Below, in pieces: positions 2,925 through 59,649 of a stretch of 64,000 nucleotides of DNA. Position 1 is the first letter of the stretch, and each line of letters opens with the position of its first letter. A program made the translations under genes and the position numbers. The notes below the pieces were generated by a model, which was given only the letters and a program-made list of their open reading frames with translations, searched no databases and was not told the origin of the DNA. Source of the stretch: Candidatus Omnitrophota bacterium (GTDB lineage: Bacteria > Omnitrophota > Gorgyraeia > 2-02-FULL-51-18); contig JACPWF010000006.1 in the NCBI GenBank assembly GCA_016197155.1, forward strand, positions 9,511-73,510, read 5' to 3'.

Positions 2925-3130
2925 GGAACCCCTTTGCCTCGCCTGTACTCGGATCTTCCTTTTTCCACAAGATGGGCTTCGCTCTTGGACAATTCACCGC
3001 CCAACTTATCCAAAATGGACTCCCGGATAACTCCCGACACGGACTTATATTCGACTCTGGCGAACCTTTTAAGCTCCTGATAGATCTTTTCCGGTAAATT
3101 CACCAGAATTCTTTTGGTCATCACGCTCAT
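2900..3130 (-). CDS. Ribbon-helix-helix (CopG-like) antitoxin
   Basis: 76 aa with an N-terminal KRILVNLPEKIYQELKRFA RHH motif. It overlaps the toxin gene. An AT-rich operator-like inverted repeat lies upstream. Confidence 0.7.
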   Translation of the reverse strand: MSVMTKRILVNLPEKIYQELKRFARVEYKSVSGVIRESILDKLGGELSKSEAHLVEKGRSEYRRGKGVPWRSVRRG

Positions 3131-3167
3131 CGGACGGCCCTCACTTTTTCATTTTATATCAAAAGTA

Positions 3168-3187
3168 TATCATATAGATATATTATT
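3168..3187 (-). promoter_or_regulatory. Inverted repeat TATATC-N5-GATATA overlapping an extended -10 (TGATATAAA on the minus strand); likely autoregulatory operator and promoter of the RHH/RelE module
   Basis: AT-rich island in GC-rich DNA immediately upstream of the antitoxin start. The minus strand reads ...TTTTGATATAAAATGAAAAAGTGAGGGCCGTCCGATG, with a GAGGG Shine-Dalgarno. Confidence 0.4.
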
Positions 3188-3212
3188 GCAGGGTTCGGGT
3201 TTGCCACTGCCT

Positions 3213-4565
3213 CTATCGATCCAGCTCCCCCCCGATCATATTCACAGAACCAAAAGTCGGCACGATGTCGGCCACCATGTCGCCGACGAGAATTTTTTCG
3301 AGCGCGGCCATGATCGGAAAACACGGCGGGCGCACGCGCACGCGGTACGGCCGGTCACTGCCGTCCGACACGACGTAAAACCCCAGCTCCCCGTTGGCGC
3401 CCTCGACGGGAAAATACGCCTCGCCCTTCGGAGGACACAGGCCGTGGCCGTGCATCACCAGTTTAAAATGATTCATCAGGCCTTCGATGTTGCCGTACGT
3501 GTCTTCCTTGGCCGGTAGGGCCACTTTTTTGTCCTTCGAATAAACATCGTCATGGTGGCGCCGCGTCGTCCCCTCAAGCGTCGGGTCAAGGTCCACCTCG
3601 ACTTCGTGAAAACCCTTGGTCCTGCCCATTTTCGCCGCGTCGACCATCTCCGCCGCCGACAGCACGCGCCCGAAATCGCCCACCGACACTTCGCCCTTGG
3701 GCATGTCCTTCAAAGCGCGCTCGACAATGCGGATGCTCTGCTCCATCTCTTCCATCCGCACGTAATAACGGTCGAGATTGTCCCCGTGCTCGCCCACCGG
3801 CACATCAAAATCGATGCGGTCATAAACGAGGTACGGGCGCGCCTTCCGGACGTCGTAATCGATCCCCGTCGAACGCAAAAACGGCCCCGTGAGGCCGTAG
3901 GCGGTCGCGTCCTCTTTTGAAATGACGCCCGTGTCCTTCAGGCGGTCAACGAAAATCCGGTTCGTATCCAAAAGCCCTTTGACTTCTTTCAACACCTTAC
4001 GGGTCTCGCTCAGCGCCGCGCGGCATTTTTCCTCAAAACCCTCCGGCAGGTCGGATTTCAAACCGCCGACGCGCGCGTAAGAAATCGTGAGACGCGCGCC
4101 CGTGACGCTTTCGATGAGTTCGTACAGAAATTCCCTGGCCTTGATCATGTAAAGGAAAACCGTGAACGCCCCCAGCTCCATCGCGGAGGCGCCGATGCAG
4201 GTGAGGTGATCGGTGACGCGCGAGAGCTCGCTCATCACCACGCGGATGTATTGACAGCGGTCGGTCGTCTCGAGGCCCATCAATTTTTCGACGGCCAGGC
4301 ACCAGCCGATGTTGTTGATGAGCGGCGACACGTAATTCAGGCGGTCGGTGTAGGGAATGGCGTTGTTGTACGGGCCCTGCTCGCACATTTTCTCGAACGC
4401 GCGGTGGAGATACCCGATCTCGACGTCGGCGCCCAGCACCGTTTCGCCGTCAAGTTTGGCCGTGATGTGCACGATCCCGTGCATCGCCGGATGCTGAGGC
4501 CCGACGTTGAGGAGCATGGGACGGGTTTCTTTAACTTTTAAATTAGGAGAAACAGGCTTGCCCAT
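3213..4565 (-). CDS. nuoD: NADH-quinone oxidoreductase subunit D (49 kDa)
   Basis: 450 aa with NVGPQHPAMHGIV and the C-terminal RVRPPCFPIMAAL typical of NuoD. A TAAGGA Shine-Dalgarno precedes the ATG. Confidence 0.95.
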   Translation of the reverse strand: MGKPVSPNLKVKETRPMLLNVGPQHPAMHGIVHITAKLDGETVLGADVEIGYLHRAFEKMCEQGPYNNAIPYTDRLNYVSPLINNIGWCLAVEKLMGLETTDRCQYIRVVMSELSRVTDHLTCIGASAMELGAFTVFLYMIKAREFLYELIESVTGARLTISYARVGGLKSDLPEGFEEKCRAALSETRKVLKEVKGLLDTNRIFVDRLKDTGVISKEDATAYGLTGPFLRSTGIDYDVRKARPYLVYDRIDFDVPVGEHGDNLDRYYVRMEEMEQSIRIVERALKDMPKGEVSVGDFGRVLSAAEMVDAAKMGRTKGFHEVEVDLDPTLEGTTRRHHDDVYSKDKKVALPAKEDTYGNIEGLMNHFKLVMHGHGLCPPKGEAYFPVEGANGELGFYVVSDGSDRPYRVRVRPPCFPIMAALEKILVGDMVADIVPTFGSVNMIGGELDR

Positions 4566-6984: not shown

Positions 6985-7170
6985 TTAGAGATTTTCGAGG
7001 ATTCTCAAATATTCCTTGGTTGAGATCCCAAGAGTCTTCAAATTGCTTTTGATCTCAACCAGCTGAAGTTCTTTTGAGGCGAACACAACACACGGGCGGG
7101 AAAGATCGGCCCGGCTGTATATTTTATGATCGCCGACTTGACGGACAAGATAGCAATTCACATGAAGCAA
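6985..7170 (-). CDS. hicA: HicA-like mRNA-interferase toxin (YcfA family); start uncertain, possibly truncated
   Basis: 61 aa. VRQVGDHKIYSRADLSRPCVVFASKELQLVEIKSNLKTLGISTKEYLRILENL matches the HicA core (RQKGSHRIY.HPDG...VP.H.KELK.GTLRSILKQAGIS.EEFL..L). It overlaps the HicB ORF by 47 bp in another frame. Confidence 0.5.
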   Translation of the reverse strand: MLHVNCYLVRQVGDHKIYSRADLSRPCVVFASKELQLVEIKSNLKTLGISTKEYLRILENL

Positions 7171-7453
7171 AAGCGGGGATCTGCATCGGCTCGGTCTTTT
7201 GACCGATAATCTCGGGAGGCATGAAGGTGTTTTTAACTTTTTGCCAGCCGCAGTCCGTTAAAACTTTTTCCCATGTTCCCATCTTGGTCACTTCTTCGAT
7301 GAACAGGCGGAGAGTCGTGCGGAATGAATCAAGAGCGTCTTCAACGGAATCCCCATGAGAAGCCAGATCCAAGACGGGGGTATAGCAGACAAAAACACCC
7401 CCTTCTTTCATAAGAATCACGGGAAGGTCATATTCAACGGGCCGCTTTTTCAT
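7124..7453 (-). CDS. hicB: HicB-like antitoxin (UPF0150/HicB_lk family)
   Basis: KKRPVEYDLPVILMKEGGVFVCYTPVLDLASHGDSVEDALDSFRTTLRLFIEEV fits the HicB N-domain pattern. The start is trimmed to MKKRP, with a GAGG Shine-Dalgarno and an extended -10 (TGGTATACT) just upstream. Confidence 0.6.
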   Translation of the reverse strand: MKKRPVEYDLPVILMKEGGVFVCYTPVLDLASHGDSVEDALDSFRTTLRLFIEEVTKMGTWEKVLTDCGWQKVKNTFMPPEIIGQKTEPMQIPAFASCELLSCPSSRRS

Positions 7454-7530
7454 GGTTTTCGCCTCGGGCAAAGTATACCACACGAAGGTTAGTGATTCCA
7501 GATTTGGCGTTTCTTGAATTCTCGTATTTT

Positions 7531-7914: not shown

Positions 7915-8232
7915 ATGCCCTTCGAGCTTTACTTTCTCCCCCCTTACGGGCGCTGTCTCAAGCATCTTGGAAACAAAGAAAAACGCATTGCCCGACTGGT
8001 CGTTTCCGCGCTTCTTGAATATTTCCACTCAAACTCTCCCACTGGCAACCCTTACATGATCCCTGTCGGGGGAAGGGCTTACCGTTTGGTTTTCAAAAAA
8101 CTGGACGGGGCTGTCTGGGAAGCGTACATTGAAAACCACGTTCGCGTTCTCACAAGACTCGACAAACACCGGCACTTTCTCGTCTTCGCCGGCAATCACG
8201 ATCAGGTCAGACAATTTCTAAAAGAAAATTAA
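7915..8232 (+). CDS. Putative toxin partner of the AbrB-type antitoxin (weak RelE/ParE-superfamily resemblance)
   Basis: 105 aa, immediately downstream of and translationally coupled to the antitoxin. The C-terminal AYRLVFKKLDGAVWEAYIENHVRVLTRLDKHRHFLVFAGNHDQV resembles RelE/YoeB-like cores. The family assignment is tentative. Confidence 0.45.
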   Translation: MPFELYFLPPYGRCLKHLGNKEKRIARLVVSALLEYFHSNSPTGNPYMIPVGGRAYRLVFKKLDGAVWEAYIENHVRVLTRLDKHRHFLVFAGNHDQVRQFLKEN

Positions 8233-11200
8233 GCCCACGCGGCCGTCTGTTGGAGGGTTCGGAAATACTGCTGGATTTGAGTCCAGGCGGCGCGGAAAAG
8301 CGGCGGCAGGGCCAAGCGTTTGGCGGCGGCGCGGGTGTTTGGGGAAATGTCTCCCGATAAAAATAAATGAAGCGAAAAAGAAAGGTCTGTCCAATCAACC
8401 TCCGGCAGACGGGAGCGATAGAGGCTCACGAAACCGTCCGGAATATTTTTTGGATCGACGCTCGCCGCAAACATGGCCAGCCAAATATCCGCTTCTGAAT
8501 CCAACTCGCCCCGGTCGAGCGGCTTGGCCGGAATAAACGGCAGAGCCTGCGCCGCGGTCCAGCTGTTTATTTCCCCCGGCGTCGCCAGCGCCAACTGCCG
8601 GTACGGTTTGCCGGTAGCGGGATGGATCCGGGCATCTTGGTTAATAACACCTTCCGCCGCGAGCGTCGCCGCCAGGGGCATTTTTAAAATTCTGTCAACG
8701 CCGGTCCCTTCAAAACGGAAAATAAAGTTTTTCGCGGCCGGCAGCCGGGAAATGCGCCTCAGCATCAAAAGTTCATTCAATAAATAAGCCTTGTCCCCCG
8801 GCAAACGTCCCAAGTCAATACTGACCACGCAGGTTTCTTGAGAAACCAGGCCCGAGTCTTTGTATTTTTCAAAGGCGGCACGGACCTTCGCGGTTTCTTC
8901 ATCTCCTCTTTCCAAAATTTCTACCGCGCTCAGCATTTTCCTATCATCCGCCGCCGTCAAACCACGATCCGTTTGCACGCGTTCAATATTCAAATTCGCC
9001 GCCACAATATCCGCCTCGGAATAATGAAACCGCAAAACCGGCCGCATCTCTTCATCAAATAAAATAATATTATTTCCCGACCGTGCCGCAAAACCGGCCC
9101 CATCTCCTATCCGAATCGGATAAGGAATTTTATTCTCCAGCTCATTCAGCCTCACCGGTAAAAAGGCCTGCCTAAGCCGAGCCTTCTCAGACGCATTCAC
9201 GAGTCTGGCCCCCGCCGTCCTCCGAAGCGCGCGCGGCAAAGACTGTCCCTCCGGCAAAAGCGACTCCGGGAATTCGTCATCAACTCCGTCCGGGATCCCT
9301 TCCCTATGAGCCCGCTCCTGCGACTTTATCCGCTTCTCTTCAAATTCACGCCTTAAGGCTTCTCTTCTAAGACTTTCTTTATGACTGTACTGCTTGTGCG
9401 GAAACCTCCGCCGCGCCGCCAGCCTCGCACCGCTCTCAAGTCCTCTTATTTTCGATCGGTCAATCAAAATTTTCGAAATAATCGACTCTATTTCTCCTAC
9501 TTTCTCACTATAGGGTCCTGAGGATTCACCACTTCGCCCGGAATAAACCGTAATGGATAAAAGACTCGCTAAAAGAACCCCCAGACGTTCCGCGCAGTTA
9601 TCCTGGATCGCATATTCTAATAATTCATTAATCTTTGCGAGGGCCTTTTTGGTTTCCGGGTCTAAACGAATATTTGAAATCCTTTTTTCTTGCGCATCAA
9701 GATAGGCAAGTTGCAACGCTGTCTGGTATTCCCCGAACAAAACCAACAACTCGTCCCGGAACGCCTTTTGTAAGGGGTCCGCCGTTCCCGCAGCCCCCAC
9801 ACCCCCTGATTTCTGATTCGCCTCCGATAAACCGGCCAACCGCGCGCCTTTGCCGGTCCGCGGGACGACATGTTTGTGCTTATCCGCGATGCGTTCCATG
9901 CGGTTTAGTTTTATTTTTTTAATTTTGATCATGAGTCTCAATACTGCGTTTGATGCCAACAAAGAATAAATAGCCATCAGCCGTTGCCACACGGCTCCCA
10001 CCCTCCCTGCCTGCCGGCTAGAAAGAGACAACCTCGCGGCGTCCGGCCTGGATTCCGACACCTGTTCTCGATAAAGGGTCTCTAAACAGGTGAACGCCTC
10101 GGGAGACAGTCGGCCTTCATCATGCAGGCGCGTCAGAACGGCAGAGAACGCAGAGGGGTCGGGTCTCTGGTTGGATAATTCTCCCGCCGACCCCGCCACC
10201 AAAGCGTCGGGGGGCAGCCCTTTGACTCCGCCCAGGGCCAGCCGCGCGGCGGTGGTCAAACCCGTTCTTACTATTTGTTCCAACCGACGTTTTCGATAAT
10301 GTGTGGAGGCGCTGTCTGAATCCGGTTCGCCGGAAAATATTTCCTCCAAAATAGACTTCCATCTTTCCAGTTCGATGGGGTCCGTTAACCCCTGCTCCAG
10401 GCGAACCGCCAAAATAGCCGACACGATAGCGGCCTCGACAACCGGCCACCTTTCATCCGAAAACCCTGAAATCGCCGCCAAAATATTTCCCCAGCCGGAA
10501 ACGGCAGGTTTTACAATTTTTTCGATCGTTTCCCGATCTTGCCCGTTAAATTCCGCGGGCGTCCATTTATCTTGATTTCGCTTGGATTTTTTTTCCGTGT
10601 CAGCCGGAACACGGAGATTTAAAATGTGAAATACGAGCGCCGACAGGCGATTCAAAATTCTCTCTGCCTTGCGATGTTTCTCCAATTCTTCCGTCAGTCC
10701 GCGGGCAAGCTCCATTTTTACACTACGGTTTGCGCCGGCCGGATTTTGAACACCTTCCTTGCAAAGCCATCCCGAAAGCCTGTCAAGCGTCAAAAATGCG
10801 ACAGACTCAGGATCTGAGCTTTTTCCGGCTCTTTCTAAAATATCCTCACGCACCCGGCCCAAGCCCGCGTAAGGGGAGGGGACATCCGTAAACCCCGCCA
10901 CGGACATGGACTCAAAAAATTCTGCCAGGAAAGGCCCCGCGACATCACGCTCTGATGAACGGGTGTCGTTGATGGTCTTTTTCAAATAATCCGCAACACT
11001 CTGAACCCAACCCCCATAATTCCCGCCGGGCGCCATTTTCGGCCTAAACAGTCTCAATCTTCCGGTCGCCGTGTCGGCAACACCCAGGAAAACCTCTTCG
11101 TCTCCCCCGAACAGTCGTTTCAGGTGAAACATATCCAAAAAGATATTTTTCAACTGCGTGACGGAAAAAAAGCGGCCGCTCGTCCCGTAAATAAACGCCG

Positions 11201-14200
11201 CGTTCTGGCGCGGTCTATGCCAGGCGGGGACCAGTTCGGGGCGGAAGACGACCTCGTTGGCAAATGCGTGCTCGAGGGCGCCTCCCCCCGCGACAAACTG
11301 GACCGGCGTCCCGTCAGGATTCATGAAAAGAATGCCCACGCTTCCCGTTTTTCGCAAAATCCTCTCGTCGATGCGTACAGGCCCCGCGTCCTTTTCCAGC
11401 TCGCCCGTCATGCGCGGCTCAAGCTCCAGTAAAAGGAAATTCCGCAGAATGTTCTTACGAAAATCCTCCGGCACGGCCTCATCTTTTTTCTGATCGCTTA
11501 TTTTCTCCAGCCCCCAGGCGCAATATTTTAAAAAAGCCGTCCGGTACTCGTTAAAAAATGCGGCATTCCAGACCCGCGGCCACTTTTCCCGGAAATCGGC
11601 CATCCGCTCCGCCCTGCCGGGAGTCTCCCGCAGTTCCGCGAGGATTTTTGCTTTCACGCGCACCACGCCGGAAAGAACCAGGAGCTTCGAAAAAAATTCA
11701 TTGTCCGATTCCGCCGCCTCAGGCTCTGTTCGATCGCGCACAAACTCGGCGGCCGTGTTCCTTGTTTCCTGTATTTCCCGTAAAAATGCGCTCTCCCCCG
11801 GATGAGATTTTAAAAAATCACCGATCACCGCCTCTTGTTCATCGATGATCCGTTTGATATTTTGCGTGACCTGTTCCAAAAAACCGCGCGTCGAAACGGC
11901 TTCCCCTTTGATCCGGTTCGCGTCCATGATCCCGAGGACAAGCTCTACCGTATTCAATTCCCTGCTCACCCTGCCGCGGGGCGTGTGAAACGTGACAAGG
12001 GCTGTGTCGAAAACCGGGAGGTCGCTTGTCCATAAATCAGGCGGCGGAAGCGTTCCCGAATCCGACACGATCGTGACAAGGCCATCCCTCAGGTCAACAA
12101 CGGACCGGCCTGGCCCCACCCTGCCCGACGCAATCTCTTCGGCGGCGTACTGAATGGGCGTCAATAAATCGTCAAACTCCCGCGACCGCGGTTCCGGTCG
12201 GATCGGCGGGGTCTTTTGATGATTCCCGGGGGGCGCGTTTCCGCCGCGTCCGCGCCGCGTCCGCGCGGCGCCGGCACCCGCTAGCCGCGCGCCAAGCACG
12301 CCGCCCGTATCAAGCTCATGCCGGATTTTTTCAAACTCCAGCACGGCCATCGCGAAGGTCCAATTGGACCAGTTAAGCGCGGAGGCCCCGCGCATCCGGA
12401 ATTTGACCCGCCCTCCTTCCTCATAGCGCTCGATTTGTTCGGAAAAAGACTTGCCTTTCGGCGCCAGGTCCCTCAGAAAATTCAGGGTGTCTTGCGCCCT
12501 TTGAAAAAGCGCGCCAACGATTTGCCAGTAACGTTCGTCTCCGGGAAAAATCGTCTTACTCGTATTCACGTCGTGGATTCCCTGATGATTAATAAATTTT
12601 CTAAAGCTCTCCGAATTTATATCTATTTTTCTCTCGTCCAAAATTTTCCGTATCGCCTTCAAATTAAACAAAACCGCCCACAGCGTCGTGATCACCCACG
12701 CGTGCCCGGAGTCGTTGGGCGCTTCCGTGAAAGCCAGTCCGCCGTATTTGTCGCCGGGATAACGCCCCCACAACACCGTGCGCGGGAACCGGACCGTCTG
12801 CTCCGGGGATAAGGCAAATTTTCTGGCGAACACATCATCCAGCTGAACGTAAGTTTCCAGGATCGCGGGATCAAAAAACCCGTGGTACGGCTCCGGCAAA
12901 TTCAGCGTATAGGGAAAGATTGTCTGCGCGTCGAGACGGGTGGGTTTCTCACCATTGGGTCCTTCGAGACGCCCCGAGTTAAACACGTAGCGGTGGGCCA
13001 AAAGATAGTCGGCGGGACGTTCCCAAGTGTCCGGCCGGCCTTTGTAAATCGGCAGGACTTCCCTCTCCAAAAAATCGAGGGGGCCTTGGCCCTGTTCCAA
13101 TTCCGAATAGGGACGCCCCGCAAGCTCGGCCAAGCCATTCAACGCTTCCCGCGAGCGCGCGGCCGATACCATGCGCTTCAGAACACCGTAGTAAAGGATG
13201 TCATTCATGGCGTGCTTCCCGTGAAACTCCTCCCACGCGTCCAAATCGCGCGGGTCATTCTCCGGATCACGACTGCCACGGACGTATAAAATCGAATGGA
13301 GAATATTTTTACGGATCGCCTCGACGGCCCGTTCGAGAAGAAAAAGCGCTTTCCGCTCCCGCTCGGATCCCGCTTCCAATAGACCGTTCTCAAAAAGATC
13401 GAGCATCAGAATCGCCGCGTGGGCGGGTCCGTCGCTCTGGTCGCCCCAATTGGTCTCCGGTTCGGACAGGCCGTCCCATCCCAGTCTTTGGGCATTCAGT
13501 TTGTGAGTGGCCCCGTAACCCTGATAAAGGTAGTCGAGAAATTTATTCAAAATGAGCCGCGCATTTTCGAAAGCGCCCGCGCGCCTGGCCAGAAATGCGG
13601 CAAACTGGCACGCGTCACGCATCCAAGTAAAACCGTACAAAGGGTTGCCTTCCACGGAGCGAGGATCGTCGATCCCGTCGGTCAAATGGGAAGAAGCAAA
13701 AATCGCGCCCGTTTTCATCGCGTCACCCAGGGCATCCGAAAGGGCCGTCACAAACGCCTGTCTAAAATCTTCCCCCACTCCCAACTGCGCGGGCGCGGCT
13801 CTCGCTTCCAGGTTTCTCTCAGAACTCCCGACAAGCCGGTGCCGCCGGTCATCAACCGGCACGTGAATGAGAGCTTTTTGCCTTCCGAAAGGATAAAAAT
13901 ACGTATCCCTCGAGTCTTCCTTTACCCTCGCCCGGACAGTCAATCGATGGGTCCCCGGAACCATGGTGTTATTTTCAAAACGAACCTTGAAAAAAACTGC
14001 TTCCGGAGGAAGTCCTCCGTTACCTGAGCCCACGGAAATAATGTTGGCCGGATAACGCTGTCTTCTGTTGGTGTGGTTGCTTTCAATTTCAATAACAAGA
14101 CTGTCTCTAATTTTCCGCGGGTCAATCACCCCGTCTAAAAACAGAACGCCTTCGACCACCAAAGGTTGGTCCGGTCCTATCAGATAAGGCGTGTGGAATG

Positions 14201-17200
14201 AAGTGACCCTGTCATTATTCACCGAGAGCCAGCCGTCCGTATCGGTTTTTTTCTCATCCACGCGAAAGGGGAGATTCTCCACCGGATTAGCCGTCATTTT
14301 AAAAATATGAACCGTGGGCGAAGCTCTGTGAAAATAGGGCCTGAGGCCTATGCTCAAACCTTCCTTCGCCAACTGCCGCCCCGACCGGTCGTACTGGCGA
14401 AGGGACTGTCCCTCGCCAGGTAAATGGGGGGCCATGTCCCGAAGGCGGTAGTTTTTGTTAGGGTCCGGGCTGAAAAGAGGCTTCACATCAACCGACACAA
14501 AATCTTTCATGCCGTCTTCCCCGGGCTCGCTTTTCAGGGACACGGCATGATTGGAAAGATTGATGCCGACGATGAGAGCCGTTTGTGGATTTGTTTCCCC
14601 CCGATTTTTTATCCCAAAGATCAAAAAAGGTTTTCCTTTTTCCGGATAATGAAGGGAAACCGCTTCAGCCGCACCCAACTCCCTGCCCAATCTTTTTCTC
14701 AAATTGACCAAACGGCAAAGGTAGGCCCTTGTCGAGGCGCTCACATTTTTGAAATAATCATGGTCTGCGATTTGATTCCACTTGGGACCGTCCCCGAGCG
14801 GCCAGACCGCAAAAAGTGTCGCGATCACGCGCGCGGCCTCTTCCCCCTGAATGTCCTGATAGCGCCGCCTCTCGGCGGGTTCGTTGGGACCGGAGATGGG
14901 TCTAAAAACGCCGGAGAGTTCCAAGAAATCCGAGTCCAGATAAACACGAAACCATCTGTCGTAGGTCCCCGCCATCCGCGCGCCCCGTCCCCCTCGTCTC
15001 GGGGAGGCGATCACTTCAAAGGCCGTGTTAGCATGATCCTCGAGAAACGGGTAAGCTGTCTTAAGTTCGGAAAAACGCCTTCGCGCCTCGGTCATCCTCT
15101 CGGCGGGAGACACAAACTTCATCGCCTCGGCCGTCACATGGCGGAGCATGCGTTCAAAAGGCGTCAGATAATATTCGCCGAATTCCTGCACGCGCATGTC
15201 CCATGAATACTTTGAATTAAGCGCGTTCTCAACCACGTGCTTCCATTGATTCGAATTTTTGTAAACTGACAGCGCTTCCGCGATGGCGCCTAAAAACTCC
15301 TCGTGATTGTATCCCTCAAAAATAAAACCGTTGCCTGTCGGGTGACGACCGGCATCATAAACTTGAACGGTGTCCTGCAATCCTCCCGTCTTTCTCACAA
15401 TCGGCACCGTTCCGTAAAGCATCGCGATCGGCGGGGTGAGTCCGAACGGCTCTGTTCTTGAAGGGACAATAAACAGATCACTGCCTGCGTAAATCAGCTT
15501 GTCATTCGAATCCATTTCGTATCCATCCAGATTCACGGGATTCTTGTCCAAACGGTCATCGGAATCGTTCAAATAAAAACGAAATTGCCCGCCGTACCCG
15601 CTTTGCCACAAGTAGTGCGCCAGATTCCTGAAATTTGCCTTTTCATCGCCAAAACCGTTCATGTCGTTGAAAATGATGACCTGCGCCCCGAGGTCCAGAG
15701 TCTTTTGAAGGACATCCCGCACAAGACCCGTTCCTTTTTGCTCAGGATCCAGGCGCGCGATCATGGAAATGATCGGCACGTTCTCATCAACATTCAAATC
15801 AAACCGTCTTTGCAGTTCAGCTTTCGCTAAAGGTTTAATTTTTTCCATTTCTCTAACCGTTTCAAACCCGCGGTAAGCGCCGGACCCATTCCCGTTCCCC
15901 TTATCCAACCCATTGGCAATCGGATGCCAGGCCCCTTCATCGTGTCGCCTTTTGGCAATCTCATCCAAACCCCCTGTCGGAACAAGGTTTCCCATAATTT
16001 CATCGCCGTAACCCTTGCTGACCGCGTCCACCCCGTCGGCGAGCGCGATCGCCGCGCGCGTCAGATTGAATCCGCCGCGCAGGGCAAAATCGCGCGCGTA
16101 CTGCGTCGGATCCGAAAGCGTCAAACCGAGAATATCGAACCATTCATCCGGAAACTGGCCCTGATAAGTGGGTCCGGCGTTGTGGATCCTGTAAAAATAC
16201 TTGGCGCGGGAGAGAGGATCGTTTAAATCATTTCGTGGATCGAGATACCAGCCGGCATGCTCCATCCTCCCCAGAATAGGAACGAGCGCCGTCAGCCAGT
16301 CGTTGGCGTGAATCACGTCCGGCTTGGGCATGAGCCCTCCGCGAACCAACTCGGGAATCACCTTCATCACACTGCGCGAGAAAAAGACAGCCTGCCGGAG
16401 CGAAGTGTCGTTGTAGGTGGTGTCATAAAGATGATGAGTGTAGTCGAGCGCCTGATTCGTGGCGCCAAGAAGCCAGTAATAAACGCCGTTGACCATCGCC
16501 TGTCTCACCGCGCCGGGAACCTGGACGCCCGCGACAGGCGCGGAGTATTCGATGTCCGTTGGCCGCACATCAAAATCTCCTGATTTTCCGTTGGACGAAT
16601 GTCTATAATCCGGCATAAAAAGCGAAACAAACCCATCTTCCAAACCTAGACGCGCCAGCGCGGCCGCCTGCTCGGCGGCCGAGTCGCCGAGACCGCCTCT
16701 CTTGGCAAACGGCCTCGCCTCCGGAGTGACTAACACAATGTGCGGAGGATAACCCTTCCACGATACCGGTTTCACCCGTCCGGCCATCCGCGCACCGGCC
16801 GGCTGCACGCGGCGGCGATACTTTGGATCTCGCAAAAAGCGGAGCGCGCCTTTTTTAAACGTCCACTCAATCCCCCCATCTTTTCGTTTCCCCGTTATTG
16901 TTCCTTCGCGGATACCTTTTTTCACGATCAGGCCCCATAGCCCACGGTTGAAGGACTGTATTTCGTGGTTAAAAATGTTTACGCGAATGGCCTCCTCGCC
17001 GCCCGCGGATGACTGAAGCAGTGAATCCCAGCGGCGGAGCTGTCCGATGACCCGATCATTTTTCTCTGCTTGGATTTTCCGCCGCGGGATCCGCCTGACG
17101 CCGACACGCCTGAAGTGCCGCAAAACGGCCCGGTAGCCCACCGCTTCCAAATCAATCAGCTTGCCGGCCAGATCCACGATTTCAGCTTCAGAACCCCCTC

Positions 17201-19073
17201 TCGGAGCGGTGAGTGCCAAGTACACGGCTGGGCGCTTTTTCATGTCGGCCAACGTGGAACCCTCCTTGATCACCAGCGCCCTCAGAGCCATGCGGTAAAA
17301 ACGGTCTGTCTTGGCCAAGCGGAGGAGTTGTTCAAAAACATCCGTGTTGATTGTCAGTTCCCGCTGGTCCGGTCCCTCAATCGCGCGATCGATCCGGACA
17401 GCCGCCGCGCCCACCGCCTCATTTTTATCGCGACGGGTTCCGGCGGAAATAAAAACTTTGTTGGGGACATTCAAAAATTCATTCACCCACCCCCGCTCTT
17501 CCCGGCTCAAGCGATCCGAATTCCTAAAAAATTCTCTCAGGCCCCGAAGAATCTTTTCCGGACGGTTGTCCGCTGAGACGATGGCCGGGCCTTGAATAGA
17601 TTTAACCGGAGGCGCGGCATCCTCTTTCACTTCCAAAAAACGATAAACGAAACAAACGACCGACAATGAAACTGCGAATATTACTCCCCCCAAAAGCAGA
17701 TCTCGTCTGTTCACCAAATACCTTCTATTGGGTTCGGAGTGATCGTTCGGATCCTGTGCGGACAGCCTCGCGGCGAACAACCGGCTCATTGAATAACCTT
17801 GAACCAAAAGCGCGTAAATAACCGGGCGTGTCAGCCGGTCTAAATCCAGCTGTGCCGGATTAGACGAGTTTCTATGAGCTTGAATAGCGGAAACCGCCTC
17901 ATTTATCGCGTCATTATTCAGGCTCAGCGTTGAAATGAGCTCAACGATTTTCTCGCTGAATGGCTTCTGCCGGGGAAATTCTTGTTCTTCGGGTCTTATT
18001 TTTATGAACCAATTGTTCAACAGCTTTCCGACCTGCGAGATCCTTATTTCTTCGTCGTTCAATCGATTTCTTTTTTGTTCTAATTTCAAATTCTCTTGAT
18101 AATGATAAACGGTCGATTCATAAACGTCATGGGCTTCCCTAAAAATCTCTTCCTGGTTTGGGTAAACTTTTTTTAATATTCCCCACACCGCATCAAAAGT
18201 GACGTCGCTCGTCTGCCGGCCGGGGGTGACGGGTACATTGGTATAACCTGTGATACTCGCCAATCTCGCCCCGCCGGTTCCATGTTGCCAAGCGCTGGCC
18301 TCGTTCCTCAAACTCGCCAACCGCGCGGCGGCAAGCGGTTCAAAAATGGGCAGTGCCCGAACCCCTGAGACAGCCGGGGTCAGACCCCTGTCCGGCGATG
18401 GCCGGTGAGGGGTCAGGCCCCTCAAGGGCTCCAAAAGCACCTCTTCATATTTTTTCTGACTCGTTTCGGACGTGACATTCGGCGTGAGAACGACGTAGGA
18501 CCAGCCTTTTTCCTTGAATAATTTTTTGAGATGCGCGGTGTGGTAGCCGCCCGCGATGAGAATGGCCGCCTTCGGCGTCCGGAGAGTGGATTGTGCCTGC
18601 CTGCCGGACAGGCAGGGAGAGTGGGTCGTGGATTTATCCACCATCCACGATCCACCATCCACGATCCGCTGTGTATTTCTTACAAACGCCCTGTCTCTGG
18701 CATTCACAGACCCATAAAACCGTCTCAGCAATTTTTTCCCGTCCTCCAAAATATTTTTGCTGGGCACCATGTCCGCAAAACACCCGCGGTCGGCAAGCTC
18801 ACGGTTCACAAAAGCCAGCGTCGAGAGCGTCGAGAAATCTTTTTCGTTGAAATCAAACAGACGGAATTCCTTGGAGGACATCTGGATCCGGTAAGCACTT
18901 TCCAAAAGCCGCAGGTAACGGTCAATCGCATGTAGGGTCGGAGGGGTCAGAGGCCTCCGACCCCTTTTTAGAATGACGGAATACACCCTCTCCTCCGTCC
19001 GCTCCGACTCATTCAGAAGTGTTTTGTAAGTGACAGAACAAAAAATTCTTTTTTGTTCTGTCATCCCGAGCAA
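8229..19073 (-). CDS. Giant multidomain protein (up to 3,614 aa) with a GT5 glycogen/starch-synthase-like domain and a GH15 glucoamylase-like domain; the 5' end is ambiguous
   Basis: A single uninterrupted 10,845-bp ORF. GT5 motifs: [13 protein letters not shown] (KTGGL type), [14 protein letters not shown], and the C-terminal [39 protein letters not shown]. GH15 motifs: [24 protein letters not shown] (catalytic WEE) and [31 protein letters not shown]. One hydrophobic helix lies near aa 445 ([22 protein letters not shown]). About 1,700 C-terminal residues are unassigned. Start candidates are TTG 19073, ATG 19064 and ATG 18884. Confidence 0.85.
   Translation of the reverse strand: [3614 protein letters not shown]
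8231..8266. repeat. Direct repeat copy 2 (the true 3' end of the giant gene)
   Basis: Matches 7531-7566. It encodes the last 11 codons plus the stop of the giant ORF. Confidence 0.8.
18935..18964. repeat. REP-like GC palindrome GGGTCGGAGGGGTCAGAGGCCTCCGACCCC
   Basis: A member of the palindrome family that also occurs at 50798-50828 and 56551-56572. It lies inside the maximal giant ORF but upstream of its ATG at 18884. Confidence 0.6.
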
Positions 19074-19986
19074 GCGAAGCGCGTCGAGGGATCAAGTCAT
19101 CACTATGGGTTTTTTCTACCAACGCCGCCTGCTCCAGATTCGCGAGATTGAAATCAATTTGCTTTTCTTTATCTTTTAAATTTATTAATTGCTGAATGGC
19201 GGGGAATTCATTCAGACTGATATTCTTTTCTTCGGCAAGCTTCAAGAGGCCTTCAATGCTTTTCCCCTGATTTCTGATTTCTGACTTCTGATTTCTGTCT
19301 TTTTCATATTCCAAAAGTTCTTTGGTATAATACTTATTTTTCAGCTTTTCAACCGACACCTCAATCGTTTTCAAATAATCCAGGATCGCCTCGCGCTTGC
19401 CGGCCAAAGCCGCATAATTTTTCAGGCTCTCCATGTAAAGATTCAGATCTTCGACGCCCATGATCTTCATCGAACGATTTGAGCTAAGATTTAAATATTC
19501 CTCCCCCTGAATTTTTCCCTGCGCGAGATAACTGCGGCCGAGGCGTTTCCACACTTCGGGAGACGCAATTTTTTTGATCGGCGTCAGCGTGCAGTCCCCT
19601 TCTCCACCCTCCGACAATACCAGTAGGGGCGACGCGTCGCCCGCCTGCCGGACGGGCAGGCGTCGCCCATACGGCGCATAATATTTTTCCGAAATCGCCT
19701 CAAGAGTTTTCGCCAAATTTTCCTGGCCGGAGAGATTGGAGTGGGCATCCTGGATGTGAATGATGAGCCTGCCGTTTGTGCCGCGGTGAATTTCCTTTAA
19801 GTCCGCGAAATCCAAGGGCGTCTCAAATAAGGTAGGATTCTGCGCAATCATCTGCAGGGGCGACCCGTACGAAGAATCGTGGCTATACATCGAATCCACC
19901 GGCGCGGCGTAGGACAGCTCTTGAATTAAAAAAGTCCCCGCCAGCACGAGCGCGATCGCTTTTATGCGCGTCTTCATTTTGTGCAT
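19009..19986 (-). CDS. Secreted hypothetical protein (signal peptide; Lys/Glu-rich with a short tandem repeat)
   Basis: 325 aa. The N-terminal MKTRIKAIALVLAGTFLIQELSYAAPV is a signal peptide. A tandem 7-nt DNA repeat (19267-19297) encodes QKSEIRNQ-type repeats. The 3' end overlaps the maximal giant ORF by 65 bp in a +1 frame. Confidence 0.7.
   Translation of the reverse strand: MHKMKTRIKAIALVLAGTFLIQELSYAAPVDSMYSHDSSYGSPLQMIAQNPTLFETPLDFADLKEIHRGTNGRLIIHIQDAHSNLSGQENLAKTLEAISEKYYAPYGRRLPVRQAGDASPLLVLSEGGEGDCTLTPIKKIASPEVWKRLGRSYLAQGKIQGEEYLNLSSNRSMKIMGVEDLNLYMESLKNYAALAGKREAILDYLKTIEVSVEKLKNKYYTKELLEYEKDRNQKSEIRNQGKSIEGLLKLAEEKNISLNEFPAIQQLINLKDKEKQIDFNLANLEQAALVEKTHSDDLIPRRASLARDDRTKKNFLFCHLQNTSE
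19033..19061. repeat. Perfect palindrome ACAGAACAAAAAA-TTC-TTTTTTGTTCTGT (13-bp arms containing A6/T6 runs)
   Basis: Seen directly in the sequence. It sits exactly where the 325-aa ORF and the giant ORF overlap in different frames. Confidence 0.9.
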
Positions 19987-23523: not shown

Positions 23524-24621
23524 TTATACACTAAACCGAAAATGCATCACATCCCCGTCCTCGACCACGTACTCTTTGCCCTCGAGACGGAACCGGCCTT
23601 TTTCCCGCGCGCCCTGCTCGCCGCGATAACGCACAAAATCGTCGTACGCGATCACCTCGGCGCGGATGAATCCCTTTTCAAAATCCGAGTGAATTTTCCC
23701 CGCGGCCTGGGGCGCCGTGGAGCCTCCCTCGACCGTCCAGGCGCGGTTTTCGGTCTCGCCCACCGTGAAAAACGCGATGAGGCGAAGCAGTTTGTGTCCC
23801 TCGCGCGCCAGCTGGTCGAGCCCCGATTCTTTCAGGTTCATCGCCTTTAAAAATTCCCCGCGCTCATTCGGCTCAAGTTTTGAAATTTCCTCCTCGACTT
23901 TTCCGCTGATCGCGATGACCGCCGAGCCGTCCTCGGCCGCCTTTTTTCTCACGGCCGTCACGTGCGGCGTGTCGGGCCGGCCGAGCTCGTCCTCGGCGAC
24001 GTTCGCGACGTAAAGAATGGGTTTGTCCGTGAGAAAATGGCTCTCTTTCAAAAGCGACCGTTCCTCGCCGGACAACGCCGCCTGCCGCGCCGTTTTTCCC
24101 TCATTAAAATTTTTCTCGCAGAGCGACAACGCCGAGAAGACCTGCGCCGCTTTTTTGTCGCCGGCCTTGGCGGCTTTTTCCCATCGGACTTTCATTTTGG
24201 CGAGCGTTTCCAGGTCCTTCAGGATGAGTTCGGTTTTGAGGACTTCCATGTCCCGCGGAGGATCGACCGTGCCGCTCACGTGGACGATGTCCTTGGATTC
24301 AAAACAGCGCACGACCTCGATGATCGCGTCGACCTCGGCGATGTGGCTGAGGAACTGATTGCCCAGGCCCTCGCCGACGCTCGCCCCCTTCACGATGCCC
24401 GCGATGTCGACGATCTCGATCGAGGTGGGCACGACTTTTTTCGTGGGAACGATTTCCGTCAGCACCTGCAAGCGTTCATCCGGCACGGCCACGACACCGA
24501 CGTTCGGATCGATTGTGGCGAACGGGTAATTCGCGGCGAGGACCGAACTGCGCGTGAGCGCGTTAAAAATCGTGGACTTGCCGACGTTCGGCAGGCCGAC
24601 GATGCCGCATTTAAAACCCAT
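23524..24621 (-). CDS. ychF: Ribosome-binding ATPase YchF
   Basis: MGFKCGIVGLPNVGKSTIFNALT, NYPFATIDPN and the C-terminal TGS domain are present. Its start overlaps the GH57 stop (TAATG). Confidence 0.95.
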   Translation of the reverse strand: MGFKCGIVGLPNVGKSTIFNALTRSSVLAANYPFATIDPNVGVVAVPDERLQVLTEIVPTKKVVPTSIEIVDIAGIVKGASVGEGLGNQFLSHIAEVDAIIEVVRCFESKDIVHVSGTVDPPRDMEVLKTELILKDLETLAKMKVRWEKAAKAGDKKAAQVFSALSLCEKNFNEGKTARQAALSGEERSLLKESHFLTDKPILYVANVAEDELGRPDTPHVTAVRKKAAEDGSAVIAISGKVEEEISKLEPNERGEFLKAMNLKESGLDQLAREGHKLLRLIAFFTVGETENRAWTVEGGSTAPQAAGKIHSDFEKGFIRAEVIAYDDFVRYRGEQGAREKGRFRLEGKEYVVEDGDVMHFRFSV

Positions 24622-58854: not shown

Positions 58855-59393
58855 GTTGGCGCTTGAAAATTGGACTCACATTCGTTGGTGATTTTGGAGA
58901 GCTTCGCAATATGCTTTTCACAAAGGGTCATTACGTCTTCGTCTAGAATGTCATCAAAACAGCACCGGATTTTACCCGTAGGTTTTGCAGTTGTTATTAA
59001 TGGTCTACTGCGAACAACATTTACCGTTGCTCCGCCTGTTCCCATAAGATGATATAAAACCACCAGATCCTTGGTTCCTTCACCGGTTGTTTCTTCAATT
59101 AGGCTTACGTGAGGATGACTTTGCACAGGACGCTCGTGTATGGTAATATCCCTTTGCCTATCCAAGTATTTCATAAACTTGTCTTGACGCATTTCTCCGA
59201 CTTTTTTTTCATACCATTTCTCAAATCCGGGAACACTGAAAAATTCCTTTTTCATCATAAATGTTATACTACGAGAGGCTGATAAAAATGCACTGATGTT
59301 GTACCTAAAAGCATCGGTATGAAAAGGGCTCTCCTTTGCACGATCCAAAAAGTATTTTGCTTCATTAAGCTTATCCGCTGTAGCAGTCACCAA
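58851..59393 (-). CDS. Hypothetical protein, encoded in the low-GC island
   Basis: 180 aa. Low GC. It overlaps the downstream gene by 4 bp. Confidence 0.55.
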   Translation of the reverse strand: MVTATADKLNEAKYFLDRAKESPFHTDAFRYNISAFLSASRSITFMMKKEFFSVPGFEKWYEKKVGEMRQDKFMKYLDRQRDITIHERPVQSHPHVSLIEETTGEGTKDLVVLYHLMGTGGATVNVVRSRPLITTAKPTGKIRCCFDDILDEDVMTLCEKHIAKLSKITNECESNFQAPT

Positions 59394-59547
59394 ATCTAAT
59401 CCTTTAAAATCTTATCATAACAGCTGTCACAAATCGGCTGTGTCTGAGCTTCCCCCGGCCCTCCAAAGGTTACGGGTCTCTCACAAGTACTTGGCTCTTC
59501 TTTCCCACATACCGAGCATTCCACAAACTACTCCTTGTAATAAAATT

Positions 59548-59648: not shown

Positions 59649-59649
59649 T

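Follow-up and report, generated by a model that had tools for sequence, protein, structure and literature searches.

The giant gene on the minus strand of the window (the whole 64-kb stretch of DNA that was analysed) belongs, as a small member, to a family of modular giant genes that is specific to Omnitrophota and keeps a fixed frame, comprising an N-terminal Sec-like signal peptide, a head of ~480 aa, highly variable cargo and a C-terminal tail ending in Ala. Judged from its sequence, the gene is best read as a chromosomal polyprotein whose chain would be cut at short junction peptides (family consensus G-A-R-[L/M]-A), a reading to which a probability of roughly 55% was assigned. It draws on the family frame, motif statistics, cassette boundaries, post-motif signals and catalytic motifs observed here.

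Giant ORFs are a hallmark of Omnitrophota, and the accessible part of the 2023 preprint on them leaves open whether giant proteins work as a single chain or are cleaved, and at which sites (West-Roberts et al., 2023, bioRxiv 10.1101/2023.11.21.568195). Because the junction peptide marks cassette borders, precedes the cassettes' own export signals and co-varies with head type, the question becomes testable. The peptide also offers a rule for cutting giants in silico into units to annotate or fold. The locus, first seen as an odd bifunctional GT5-GH15 enzyme, would be re-read as a co-translated glycogen synthase and glucoamylase pair in a polyprotein-like gene. If Omnitrophota do encode true polyproteins, bacteria would have a third way, next to operons and stable fusions, of organising genes that are co-expressed.

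Family frame and head

The 5' part of the gene comprises the following features.

8229-19073, minus strand: giant ORF of 3,614 aa, starting at TTG; the deposited protein (P0045) has 3,585 aa.
19009-19986, minus strand: upstream 325-aa ORF with a Sec-like signal peptide (MHKMKTRIKAIALVLAGTFLIQELSYA, then AP) and the first half of the head (IIHIQDAH, LSEGGEG).
19043-19091, minus strand: frame-shift zone with an A6 run and part of a T6 run, where +1 is needed to join the two ORFs.
18399-19073, minus strand: second half of the head (aa 1-225), with RDRAF and ILIAGGYHTAHL.

The upstream ORF (P0001) is 100% identical to NCBI HYZ52_00690, a protein of a Candidatus Omnitrophica MAG. In the positional ortholog (L001) and in most related loci examined, this ORF and the giant ORF form one reading frame, and the giant ORF is probably longer at its 5' end, with the true gene start at 19986; including the upstream ORF, the protein would come to about 3,900 aa. 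In the window the two ORFs are separated by a +1 frameshift that splits the head, so this copy may be defective. By frame arithmetic on the sequence, deletion of one A in the frame-shift zone gives ...DDRTKRIFCSVTY... at the join. As another way of joining the ORFs, -1 frameshifting at the in-phase A_AAA_AAG heptamer near 19050 was rejected, since the resulting frame soon stops and +1 is needed.

Orthologous giant genes, proposed earlier as a check, were found in related genomes as one positional ortholog and 407 metagenome matches. The ortholog, from the Omnitrophota MAG JACQQX01, is an intact ORF of 4,337 aa beside the same nuo operon. A Sec-like N-terminal signal is present in all family members, several of which have no other TM helix. 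The window protein carries the signal peptide and the head pattern IQDAH...VEGG...RD...GGYH, split by the frameshift between 19009-19986 and aa 1-225 of the giant ORF; the latter segment is the only part of the giant ORF common to 79 metagenome loci.

The head fold is predicted to resemble TIKI/TraB/ChaN/erythromycin-esterase-type hydrolases. An AF2 model of the head reached a pLDDT of 82.5, and the invariant residues D76-x-H78, E106 and H471 follow the order expected for the 2His/2Glu catalytic set of that superfamily (PMC6254334), the first acid being Asp rather than Glu and the comparison being one of sequence order. A helical insertion of ~300 aa also sets the head apart from the TIKI/TraB/PrgY/ChaN/erythromycin-esterase superfamily. 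No Pfam or NCBIfam model matched it (TraB, ChaN and Erythro_esteras models included), a head profile found no relative in the PDB, and Foldseek of the head model gave no significant match; by sequence profile, the head thus matched no Pfam, NCBIfam or PDB member of the superfamily.

The family tail has the consensus ...A-x-x-[AS]-[AS]-A-COOH. Its C-terminal helix ends in an invariant Ala, and a Q is conserved in at least 90% of sequences (12-sequence alignment A2). The end of the window protein, ...QIQQYFRTLQQTAAWA, fits this helix with its near-invariant Q and C-terminal Ala.

Covalent linkage of head and cargo is dispensable. In three independent assemblies (L002, L003 and L004) the head gene ends 20 aa past its GARMA, and a cargo-plus-tail gene begins at the head-gene end with a 16-nt overlap. 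Two proteins (P0046 and P0047) have a divergent head and no GARLA, and carry R-[SH]-E-[QL]-R at their cassette borders instead; by these sequences, head type and junction peptide co-vary.

Cassette map

Beyond the head, the giant ORF is divided as follows.

18315-18329, minus strand: junction motif AARLA (aa 249-253).
18258-18272, minus strand: junction motif GARLA (aa 268-272), followed by an orphan cassette (aa 269-433).
16797-17774, minus strand: membrane-anchored cassette (aa 434-759), with AARLS, then an Arg-rich n-region (NRRYLVNRRD), then a TM helix.
17643-17699, minus strand: TM helix of the membrane-anchored cassette (aa 459-477).
14985-16796, minus strand: GT5 cassette (aa 760-1363), starting with GARMA, a full-length GlgA-type alpha-glucan synthase.
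12294-14984, minus strand: GH15 cassette (aa 1364-2260), with GARMA, ~420 aa without assignment, then the GH15 domain.
12363-13718, minus strand: GH15 catalytic domain (aa 1786-2237).
10251-12293, minus strand: orphan cassette (aa 2261-2941, ~680 aa), starting with GARLA.
9213-10250, minus strand: four short cassettes (aa 2942-3287), with motifs AARLA at 2942, AARLS at 3012, GARLA at 3076 and GARLA at 3215.
8232-9212, minus strand: tail cassette (aa 3288-3614), starting with GARLV, homologous to the C-terminus of the ortholog and ending ...QQYFRTLQQTAAWA-COOH.

The earlier note had described ~760 N-terminal residues without a recognisable motif apart from one TM-like helix. The helix stands (one strong helix, aa 459-477), with two weak hydrophobic helices elsewhere in the protein. 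At aa 3033-3051, ~20 aa past the motif at 3012, lies a hydrophobic helix. The region is not an anonymous linker; it consists of half of the conserved TIKI-like head and the membrane-anchored cassette. At the other end, the stretch without assignment is about 1,350 aa long, shorter than the ~1,700 aa given before.

Comparison with the ortholog showed a mosaic. Residues 760-1368 of the window protein correspond to 1681-2295 of the ortholog, 454-766 to 3271-3581 and 3215-3349 to 3978-4116, so that the membrane-anchored cassette is found at another position there. The alignments of these shared cassettes begin 0-1 aa from a motif, and the same shifted cassettes starting at the motif were seen in other pairs (e.g., L042/L054, L014/L047 and L054/L062). 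Internal duplication was rejected, as self-BLAST of the giant protein found no repeats.

Word-indexed protein searches returned no match for aa 2261-3614 or aa 1365-2262, and phmmer against the PDB gave none for aa 2942-3614 or for the orphan cassette at aa 2261-2941, to which no homolog or fold could be assigned. An AF2 single-sequence model of aa 2262-2942 had a pLDDT of only 38.7, too low for use. Against all 83 loci (phmmer, tblastn) the orphan cassettes matched the ortholog only, and NCBIfam held nothing meaningful for head, tail or orphan cassettes.

Junction peptide

The pattern [GA]AR[LM][ASV] occurs 11 times in the window protein, at cassette borders. With the stricter [GA]AR[LM][AS], the protein accounts for 10 of 13 six-frame matches across the 64 kb. 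Across the family, GAR[LM]A was counted 178 times in 143,460 aa of head-carrying ORFs (1.24 per 1,000 aa), vs. twice in ~148,800 aa of other ORFs of the same loci (about 0.01 per 1,000 aa). The residue at position -1 of the junction is G in 80% of cases, the R is invariant, and the variable position holds L (116), M (57), V (2) or I (1). Searched in the literature, GARLA, GARMA and AARLA turned up solely with unrelated meanings.

None of the Pfam domains of 11 family proteins is interrupted by the motif. In one of them (L037), a motif at 2552 is followed by HPr at 2559-2639, and HATPase at 2811-2919 is followed by a motif at 2928. Internal TM-like segments tend to follow the motif closely, 18 of 38 lying at most 40 aa after it (8% expected, P = 1e-10), as do Tat motifs of the form RRxF[LMI], with 7 of 16 lying 5-35 aa after it (6% expected, P = 2e-5); several of the remaining Tat motifs come after variant junctions such as GGRLA. 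Cassette starts with their own signals after the motif include GARLAGMSRRAFLSAAAGAAASLIPALLTA and GARLVETLGSKRNQITRRSFMMGAAALTAAMSVAQ. By sequence, the cassettes look like whole proteins with their own N-termini. A five-residue tag at the start of each unit suggests that the giant protein is cut into separate proteins.

Proposed polyprotein processing

Under the polyprotein reading, the ORF would be an operon written as one reading frame, with a cargo string freely exchangeable between head and tail. The chain would be cut at or beside each junction peptide (Leu/Met as P1 and Ala as P1' are plausible), which would yield one separate protein per cassette, all in equal amounts, with some of them then relying on their own Tat, Sec or TM signals. 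In the window the cargo would comprise a membrane-anchored unit, a GlgA-type alpha-1,4-glucan synthase, a GH15 glucoamylase-like hydrolase with N-terminal accessory domains, the 680-aa orphan and several small units. If the cassettes are cut apart, the GT5 and GH15 cassettes would be a co-expressed pair for glycogen synthesis and mobilisation rather than a fused bifunctional scaffold. We infer cleavage itself, its position, its compartment and the acting protease from sequence features.

The positive residues before the TM helix at aa 459-477 place its upstream side in the cytoplasm. With that orientation, the nucleotide-sugar-dependent GT5 would be carried across the membrane with the chain if no cut were made at the motif at aa 760. 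TIKI cuts Wnt3a between Leu and Ala, and the head is a candidate processing protease. The Tat signals behind the junctions imply that cutting is cytoplasmic; the head has a Sec-type signal and may be periplasmic, and so it may not be the processing enzyme.

Several observations count against the polyprotein reading. Hydrophobic residues dip around the motif from -5 to +9 only, with no long disordered linkers, which leaves only a short exposed stretch. In two proteins (L001 and L055) a motif also lies 9-13 aa from the C-terminus, where cutting would have no obvious purpose. Internal signal-anchor helices work uncut in ordinary multi-pass membrane proteins. The codon bias of the motif, given below, hints at a nucleic-acid-level component or shared descent.

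The short exposed stretch and the motif copies near the C-terminus would suit a protein that stays whole, that is, a membrane-tethered multi-enzyme with GT5 and GH15 side by side on the same glucan and the pentapeptide serving as a structural cap, a hinge or a docking peptide for a chaperone or scaffold partner. The GT5-then-GH15 order kept in the ortholog is in line with this, and the accessible part of the 2026 preprint sees such proteins as inner-membrane-anchored with cytoplasmic enzymes (bioRxiv 10.64898/2026.06.07.730766). The charges around the TM helix, in contrast, conflict with an uncut chain whose first part is an exported head. Tat signals must be near a free N-terminus, and classical Tat signal peptides directly follow internal junctions. 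Head and cargo are separate genes in three assemblies, and the strict R with L/M but not V/I at the next position is typical of protease subsites. An uncut multi-enzyme was considered unlikely, though it carries real weight.

A wider claim was made tentatively, at somewhat less than even odds: that Omnitrophota encode true cellular polyproteins, in chromosomal genes of 1.5 to well over 4 kaa (possibly also the 10-100-kaa giants), each chain being cut at a lineage-specific pentapeptide (G-A-R-[L/M]-A here, R-S-E-Q-R in another lineage) so that ordinary proteins would be freed by the dozen, some cytoplasmic, some in the membrane and some exported by Tat or Sec. The constant TIKI-like head, or else the tail, would belong to the processing or assembly machinery, and cassettes would be exchanged between genes at the junctions.

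Comparison with known systems

Long multi-enzyme GT5-rich ORFs have already been described for Omnitrophota, and the window gene is no isolated oddity. The earlier view that its architecture was undescribed does not hold, as GT5/starch-synthase domains rank among the most frequent ones of long and giant Omnitrophota proteins in the accessible parts of both preprints (bioRxiv 10.1101/2023.11.21.568195; bioRxiv 10.64898/2026.06.07.730766). These treat the 'Archaeovorin'-type giants (2023) and the 'multi-enzyme metabolic cluster' class (2026). From the parts accessible, the window protein shares with them the phylum, a signal-like region at the N-terminus with a domain-poor stretch behind it, chains that each carry many enzyme domains unrelated to one another (GT5, PF08323, and GT1 being among the most frequent, alongside glycoside hydrolases and enzymes of sugar metabolism) and poorly conserved, mostly Pfam-dark sequence. 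On the same basis it differs in size, as the classes were set at >=10 kaa (2026) or >30 kaa (2023) and the window protein, at about 3.6-3.9 kaa, lies below both. It also has only 1-3 hydrophobic helices where the giants have numerous TM helices, and Pfam (E <= 1) found in it neither the SecA-DEAD-like domain nor the N-terminal C39 or S8 peptidase of the giants. The accessible text of both preprints states the cleavage points of the giants as unknown, and describes no G-A-R-[LM]-A junction, TIKI-like head or Ala-terminal tail; the family frame, the junction peptide and the cassette behaviour go beyond what is described there.

MARTX toxins share with the window family one very long chain with an exchangeable array of unrelated effector or enzyme modules, shuffled between strains. 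Their modules are freed by cutting at short inter-module sites after Leu, and the window junctions, where cutting would be by analogy, were likened to these sites. A TIKI-fold module, RRSP, occurs in MARTX (PMC6254334), as cargo there and as the constant head in the window family.

A MARTX-like secreted effector array was weighed, in which the whole chain would be exported by its N-terminal signal, delivered to prey or host and cut there into effectors, including glucan-handling enzymes. The Sec-like signal in all family members and the lack of any other TM helix in several would suit export, and part of the cargo, being enzymes that depend on ATP or nucleotide sugars, needs a cytoplasm. The MARTX CPD prefers cleavage at Leu followed by a small residue, as at the window junctions. 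Omnitrophota are thought to be predatory or parasitic (PMC10066038), and the accessible part of the 2023 preprint links giant proteins to prey contact (bioRxiv 10.1101/2023.11.21.568195). Of the RTX repeats, the C80 cysteine protease domain and the T1SS signal, which characterise MARTX, Pfam found none in the window protein, however; the neighbourhood gives no T1SS context, and the Tat/Sec signals on internal cassettes point to the export machinery of the producer. The locus is also chromosomal, among housekeeping genes and directly upstream of nuoA-F in both genomes (window and ortholog). An effector array was considered improbable.

Viral polyproteins (picornavirus 3C, potyvirus NIa) are alike in yielding many mature proteins per ORF and in having a short recognition peptide that recurs along the chain and follows a strict subsite pattern. 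The window gene differs from these in being cellular and chromosomal, with processing only proposed and its protease a candidate.

Codon usage at the junction

The motif is written with preferred codons (GGC GCG CGG CTG GCG), at synonymous frequencies of 0.54-0.73 vs. 0.24-0.38 expected. The bias persisted against each ORF's own usage (GGC 0.73 vs. 0.38, CGG 0.61 vs. 0.24, CTG 0.60 vs. 0.24), NTG makes up 88% of the L/M codons, and the consensus includes GCTGG. Together with the clear shuffling of cassettes, this would suit a junction that is mainly a nucleic-acid signal (a recombination hotspot for cassette shuffling, or a site of mRNA processing, pausing or internal initiation), with the peptide as a by-product. 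Against such a signal, codons vary at every position, the variants (S, T or G at position 2) conserve the class of residue and not the nucleotides, and a second lineage has an unrelated peptide, RSEQR, at the same borders. The motif is confined to the coding frame and strand of family ORFs; on these grounds a pure DNA repeat was rejected. GTG is a better start codon than CTG, and an NTG internal start codon was likewise rejected, as Val (GTG) is nearly absent at the L/M position and CTA/CTC codons occur. A junction acting mainly at the nucleic-acid level was considered quite improbable.

GT5 and GH15 units

Both catalytic modules proposed in the earlier note were recovered by profile searches. 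Glyco_transf_5 (PF08323) matched aa 778-1038 (E 4e-32) and Glycos_transf_1 (PF00534) aa 1090-1278 (E 3e-12), both above gathering scores, and Glyco_hydro_15 (PF00723) matched aa 1786-2237 (E 2e-11, 43.7 bits vs. a cut-off of 22) over profile positions 21-419 of 427. The motif strings quoted before were all located (KRGGLGD at 791, HANDW at 922, SRTEPFGL at 1205, KTGGLQDTV at 1228, WEE at 1947 and GRYPGDKY...WVITTLWA).

The GlgA core begins 14 aa past the motif. The GT5 motifs KxGGL, NDW, RLDxxQKG (as ARLDPEQKG at aa 1106), EPFGL and TGGLQDTV lie in a full-length alignment to starch synthase I (4hln) and E. coli GlgA (2qzs). The unit scores 255 bits against the NCBIfam glgA model (TIGR02095), below its cut-off of 328.45, and is far under the cut-offs of all NCBIfam equivalog models; by these scores it is a divergent subfamily member, not a glgA equivalog. 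It is 69% identical to aa 1681-2295 of the ortholog.

The window GH15 is very divergent, matching ordinary GH15 proteins at E 1e-7 to 1e-3 only and nothing in the PDB at E <= 0.01 (phmmer), and its unit has ~420 N-terminal residues that an ordinary glucoamylase lacks. This divergence would suit a non-catalytic domain, regulatory or glucan-binding, with control over the fused GT5, as in the alpha and beta subunits of phosphorylase kinase, a parallel drawn in the earlier note. An alignment by MAFFT with GH15 from four ordinary proteins and from three cassettes of long proteins speaks against it, since all five conserved regions are kept (among them W-x-R-D, Q-x-D-G-P-A, G-R-Y-x-x-D-x-Y and L-x-W-S), as are both catalytic Glu whose state was to be checked, the acid in D-x-WEE (aa 1947) and the base in SEQ (aa 2211). 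The ortholog has a near-canonical GH15 (E 8e-43) of a different lineage at the same place. A regulatory GH15 was considered very improbable; judging by their intact motifs, GT5 and GH15 both look catalytically active.

The GT5-then-GH15 pairing is real and conserved, as the ortholog has the same order. The single scaffold envisaged before is not supported, because the chain is built of cassettes bounded by G-A-R-[LM]-A and the evidence favours processing into separate proteins. In bacteria and archaea the same families (glgA-type GT5, glucoamylase GH15 and GH57) are encoded side by side as separate glycogen genes with intact catalytic motifs; in the window, GT5 and GH15 are cassettes of one ORF.

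Reading-frame integrity and gene neighbourhood

The giant ORF is one uninterrupted gene and not a product of chance, as had been argued from its length. At the window-wide stop rate of 0.0265 per codon, 3,614 open codons would arise by chance with a probability of ~1e-42, and the other five frames hold 68-166 stops each over the same span. An assembly chimera or dead pseudogene, suggested by the +1 frameshift that splits the head in a homopolymer-rich stretch and by several cassettes without a homolog in the searches made, is scarcely credible in view of this open frame, the intact 4,337-aa ortholog next to the same nuo operon, the 407 related loci and the intact catalytic motifs.

PADLOC returned no match. 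The GH57 gene reported 5.5 kb away is present outside the giant gene and provides glucan-related context only.

24621-26129, minus strand: separate gene with GH57 and DUF3536 domains.

The giant ORF and its catalytic units

Positions in aa are counted along the giant ORF.

8229-19073, minus strand: giant ORF, 3,614 aa, TTG start
aa 459-477, minus strand: strong hydrophobic, TM-like helix
aa 778-1038, minus strand: Glyco_transf_5 (Pfam, E 4e-32)
aa 1090-1278, minus strand: Glycos_transf_1 (Pfam)
aa 1786-2237, minus strand: Glyco_hydro_15 (Pfam, E 2e-11, exceeding the gathering score, covering positions 21-419 of the 427-position profile)
24621-26129, minus strand: separate gene, GH57 + DUF3536

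The earlier note had claimed one uninterrupted 10.8-kb ORF with GT5 and GH15 modules, a TM-like helix in its N-terminal part and a GH57 gene nearby, and each of these held. Over the same span the other five frames contain 68-166 stops each, and, given a stop frequency of 0.0265 across the window, an open run this long has a chance of ~1e-42. The ORF is deposited as a 3,585-aa protein (P0045). NCBIfam glgA models aligned aa 778-1302 at E 1e-75, yet below their curated cut-offs; the GT5 unit could be aligned over its whole length to 4hln (barley starch synthase I, E 6e-34) and to 2qzs (E. coli GlgA), and K-x-G-G-L, N-D-W, R-L-D-x-x-Q-K-G, E-P-F-G-L and T-G-G-L-Q-D-T-V are present. For the GH15 unit, the alignment set was four ordinary GH15 proteins plus three cassettes of that family from other long proteins. 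W-x-R-D, Q-x-D-G-P-A, D-x-W-E-E (acid), G-R-Y-P-G-D-K-Y, S-E-Q (base) and L-N-W-S are all present, both catalytic Glu residues included. A degenerate regulatory GH15, as had been hinted, is unsupported because the signature regions, acid and base are all kept. Both units look catalytically competent from their motifs.

Gene start and positional ortholog

19009-19986, minus strand: upstream ORF, 325 aa, 100% identical to NCBI HYZ52_00690 (Candidatus Omnitrophica MAG)
L001 9242-22255: orthologous gene, 4,337-aa protein

Among species-representative genomes one related locus was found, L001 (Omnitrophota MAG JACQQX01), whose ORF starts with ATG and encodes 4,337 aa. Like the giant ORF it lies directly upstream of a nuoA-B-C-TPR-nuoD-E-F cluster, gene by gene at 63-87% identity to that of the window, and it was therefore taken as the positional ortholog. 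Its first ~275 aa align to the upstream ORF and what follows aligns, in a different frame, to the beginning of the giant ORF, so the window gene probably starts at 19986. The conserved head is divided between the 325-aa and giant ORFs by a +1 frameshift at 19091-19043 (minus strand), where the sequence includes six consecutive A (A6) and a portion of a T6 run. An assembly error would account for it, as would a recent lesion; an old pseudogene is disfavoured because ten kb of frame stay open downstream. A -1 shift at an in-phase A_AAA_AAG heptamer was rejected, as the resulting frame soon reaches a stop and +1 is required. Between the giant gene and nuoA lie two small ORFs, 7124-7483 (minus, 119 aa) and 7915-8232 (plus, 105 aa), with no Pfam match and no counterpart in L001.

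A family of head-cargo-tail genes

The reconstructed N-terminal 558 aa were used as the search query and matched 44 proteins, of which those with a named source were nearly all from Omnitrophota (one from Patescibacteria); Pfam placed no domain in the head of any of them. A metagenome scan with the alignment of these proteins matched 407 coding stretches, and 79 of the metagenome loci were fetched. Head-starting ORFs were very long: many were still open past 3,900 aa at the flank edge, and complete long ones measured 1,562-3,763 aa. An alignable C-terminal helix ending A-x-x-[AS]-[AS]-A-COOH was found in 13 of 15 complete ORFs >1,500 aa, as well as in the window protein, in L001 and in the two tandem members located upstream; all 12 sequences of the tail alignment end in Ala. 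The cargo between was extremely diverse (ABC1 kinase, M48 and trypsin-like peptidases, HEAT repeats, DnaJ, HPr, HATPase_c, FHA, histidine phosphatase, methyltransferase, inositol monophosphatase). Apart from the head, no window cassette recurred in the 79 metagenome loci, and cassettes aa 269-433, 2261-2941 and 2942-3287 had no detectable relative in the searched sequences and no solved-structure match.

The head of P0002, a family protein, was modelled confidently with AlphaFold2 (32 sequences, pLDDT 82.5, pTM 0.76), the stretch with the junction motif being disordered. D76-x-H78 (IIHIQDAH), E106 (VEGG) and R443 are invariant and G468-G469-x-H471 (GGYH) is near-invariant; D76, H78, E106 and H471 follow the order of the 2His/2Glu site of the TIKI/TraB superfamily, with Asp in place of the first Glu. 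A TIKI-like head is suggested at the level of fold only; Foldseek and sequence profiles gave nothing significant. In Foldseek the long helical insertion of the P0002 head (aa ~160-460) resembled alpha-pore-forming toxin components (YaxA, XaxA, SmhB, AhlB/C, NheA) weakly and below significance. Family genes also occur in tandem: in L063 (3-6371) and L073 (2-9787) motif-rich giant ORFs, ending VERAA or VAHFA, stand directly before the next head, and in L066 a second head lies ~7 kb downstream at 17994-18572.

The junction peptide

The peptide [GA]-A-R-[LM]-[ASV] occurs 11 times in the window protein, at aa 249, 268, 434, 760, 1364, 2261, 2942, 3012, 3076, 3215 and 3288 (counted from the first residue of the motif), with copies on either side of the GT5 unit and of the GH15 unit. 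Ten of these copies fit the stricter [GA]AR[LM][AS], which has 13 six-frame matches across the whole 64 kb; the L001 protein has 9 copies. GAR[LM]A was found 178 times in 143,460 aa of head-starting ORFs and twice in ~148,800 aa of other ORFs at the same loci, with 14 further copies in two upstream tandem members. In 80% of copies a G stands before A-R-[LM]-A, the R never varies, and the variable position is L (116), M (57), V (2) or I (1). Flanks are without conservation in family ORFs, median spacing is 273 aa, and some members carry G-[ST]-R-L and G-G-R-L-A variants. No motif was seen inside a detected Pfam domain of family proteins.

The window protein and L001 are mosaics, in which common pieces start at the motif and stand at different positions. 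By BLAST these are the GT5 cassette (window 760-1368, L001 1681-2295, 69% identity), the TM cassette (454-766, 3271-3581) and the tail start (3215-3349, 3978-4116). In the L001 protein aa 1479-1528 belong to a Sigma-70 region 4 cassette, and at two places (aa 834, aa 3276) a TM helix comes immediately after a motif.

Proposed processing at the junctions

We favour a reading, proposed from sequence evidence, in which the chain would be cut at the junctions. Cassettes behave as mobile units with starts exactly at the motif, and they have the extent of whole proteins: 14 aa separate a motif from the start of the GlgA core, and in metagenome locus L037 HPr starts 7 aa past one motif and HATPase stops 9 aa ahead of the next. 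Internal TM-like segments lay <=40 aa after a motif in 18 of 38 cases (8% expected, P = 1e-10), and RRxF[LMI] twin-arginine motifs lay 5-35 aa after one in 7 of 16 (6% expected, P = 2e-5), several others following variant motifs. These are textbook Tat signal peptides, GARLAG-MSRRAFLSAAAGAAASLIPALLTA being one, and a signal of this kind would be meaningful only with a free N-terminus close by. An Arg-rich segment N-terminal to TM 459-477 would place the upstream side in the cytoplasm and the downstream side outside, and with that topology the nucleotide-sugar-dependent GT5 would leave the cytoplasm unless the chain were cut at aa 760.

Covalent linkage of head and cargo is not required. Three independent assemblies (L002-L004) hold a minimal member (236-3945 in L002 coordinates) whose head is a separate gene of 618 aa, ending 20 aa past GARMA and overlapping by 16 nt a second gene of 622 aa with one more motif and the family tail. 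In a second lineage, P0046 (5,818 aa) and P0047 (3,216 aa) have a divergent head (VIQDAHAIAGAQ...GGFHS), a tail ending LIAAMA, and, without GARLA, R-[SH]-E-[QL]-R at the corresponding cassette borders (behind the head, ahead of the GH15 cassette, behind a GH13 C-terminal domain); head and junction therefore co-vary.

12279-12293, window: junction motif with biased codons
14970-14984, window: junction motif with biased codons

Codon choice may count against processing. In the window and in L001-L083 the motif favours GGC GCG CGG CTG GCG, at 0.54-0.73 observed and 0.24-0.38 expected from each ORF's own usage (GGC 0.73 vs 0.38, CGG 0.61 vs 0.24, CTG 0.60 vs 0.24), well beyond that usage; this may come from common descent of the junctions, from a pause site or from some signal in the nucleic acid. 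Copies 9-13 aa from the C-terminus in L001 and L055 have no obvious use. The head may not be the processing protease, because its signal is Sec-like while the Tat signals imply cytoplasmic cutting.

The GT5-GH15 pairing

The order GT5 then GH15 recurs in L001 (GT5, 1699-2206; one junction, 2291; GH15 cassette, 2484-2936, Pfam E 8e-43), and the two GH15 cassettes gave no BLAST alignment at E <= 1e-3. The pairing was thus kept while the cassette was replaced, as expected for functionally linked, operon-like partners of glycogen synthesis and mobilisation. A search of 1.84 billion representatives yielded just four more long proteins with window-type GH15 (P0046-P0049), which stands together with a GH13 alpha-amylase domain (Pfam) in P0047 and with galactokinase and aldose epimerase in P0048 (2,241 aa). 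The GH57 gene is possibly further glycogen context.

Relation to known giant proteins

The earlier description of an undescribed architecture was not supported. GT5 is a frequent domain in long multi-enzyme Omnitrophota ORFs in the accessible text of bioRxiv 10.1101/2023.11.21.568195 and bioRxiv 10.64898/2026.06.07.730766, and the window protein is a member of this known, poorly understood class. It lies outside the Omnitrophota giant classes on size, SecA-DEAD and many-TM criteria. Its closest functional likeness, by analogy, would be a polyprotein or MARTX-like array, with every defining feature of MARTX absent. The accessible text of bioRxiv 10.1101/2023.11.21.568195 states that cleavage points of these giant proteins are unknown, and no description of the junction peptide, TIKI-like head or Ala-terminal tail was found in the accessible portions of the Omnitrophota giant-protein literature searched. 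There is a substantial chance, slightly under even, that the finding exposes a processing code that holds generally for the giant genes of Omnitrophota.

Elsewhere in the window, a LuxC-like acyl-CoA reductase adjoins a LuxE-like acyl-protein synthetase at 26139-28252 (minus strand), beside an aminotransferase-like ORF, and GC falls to 0.44 at 58001-60000 from ~0.55-0.59 around it.
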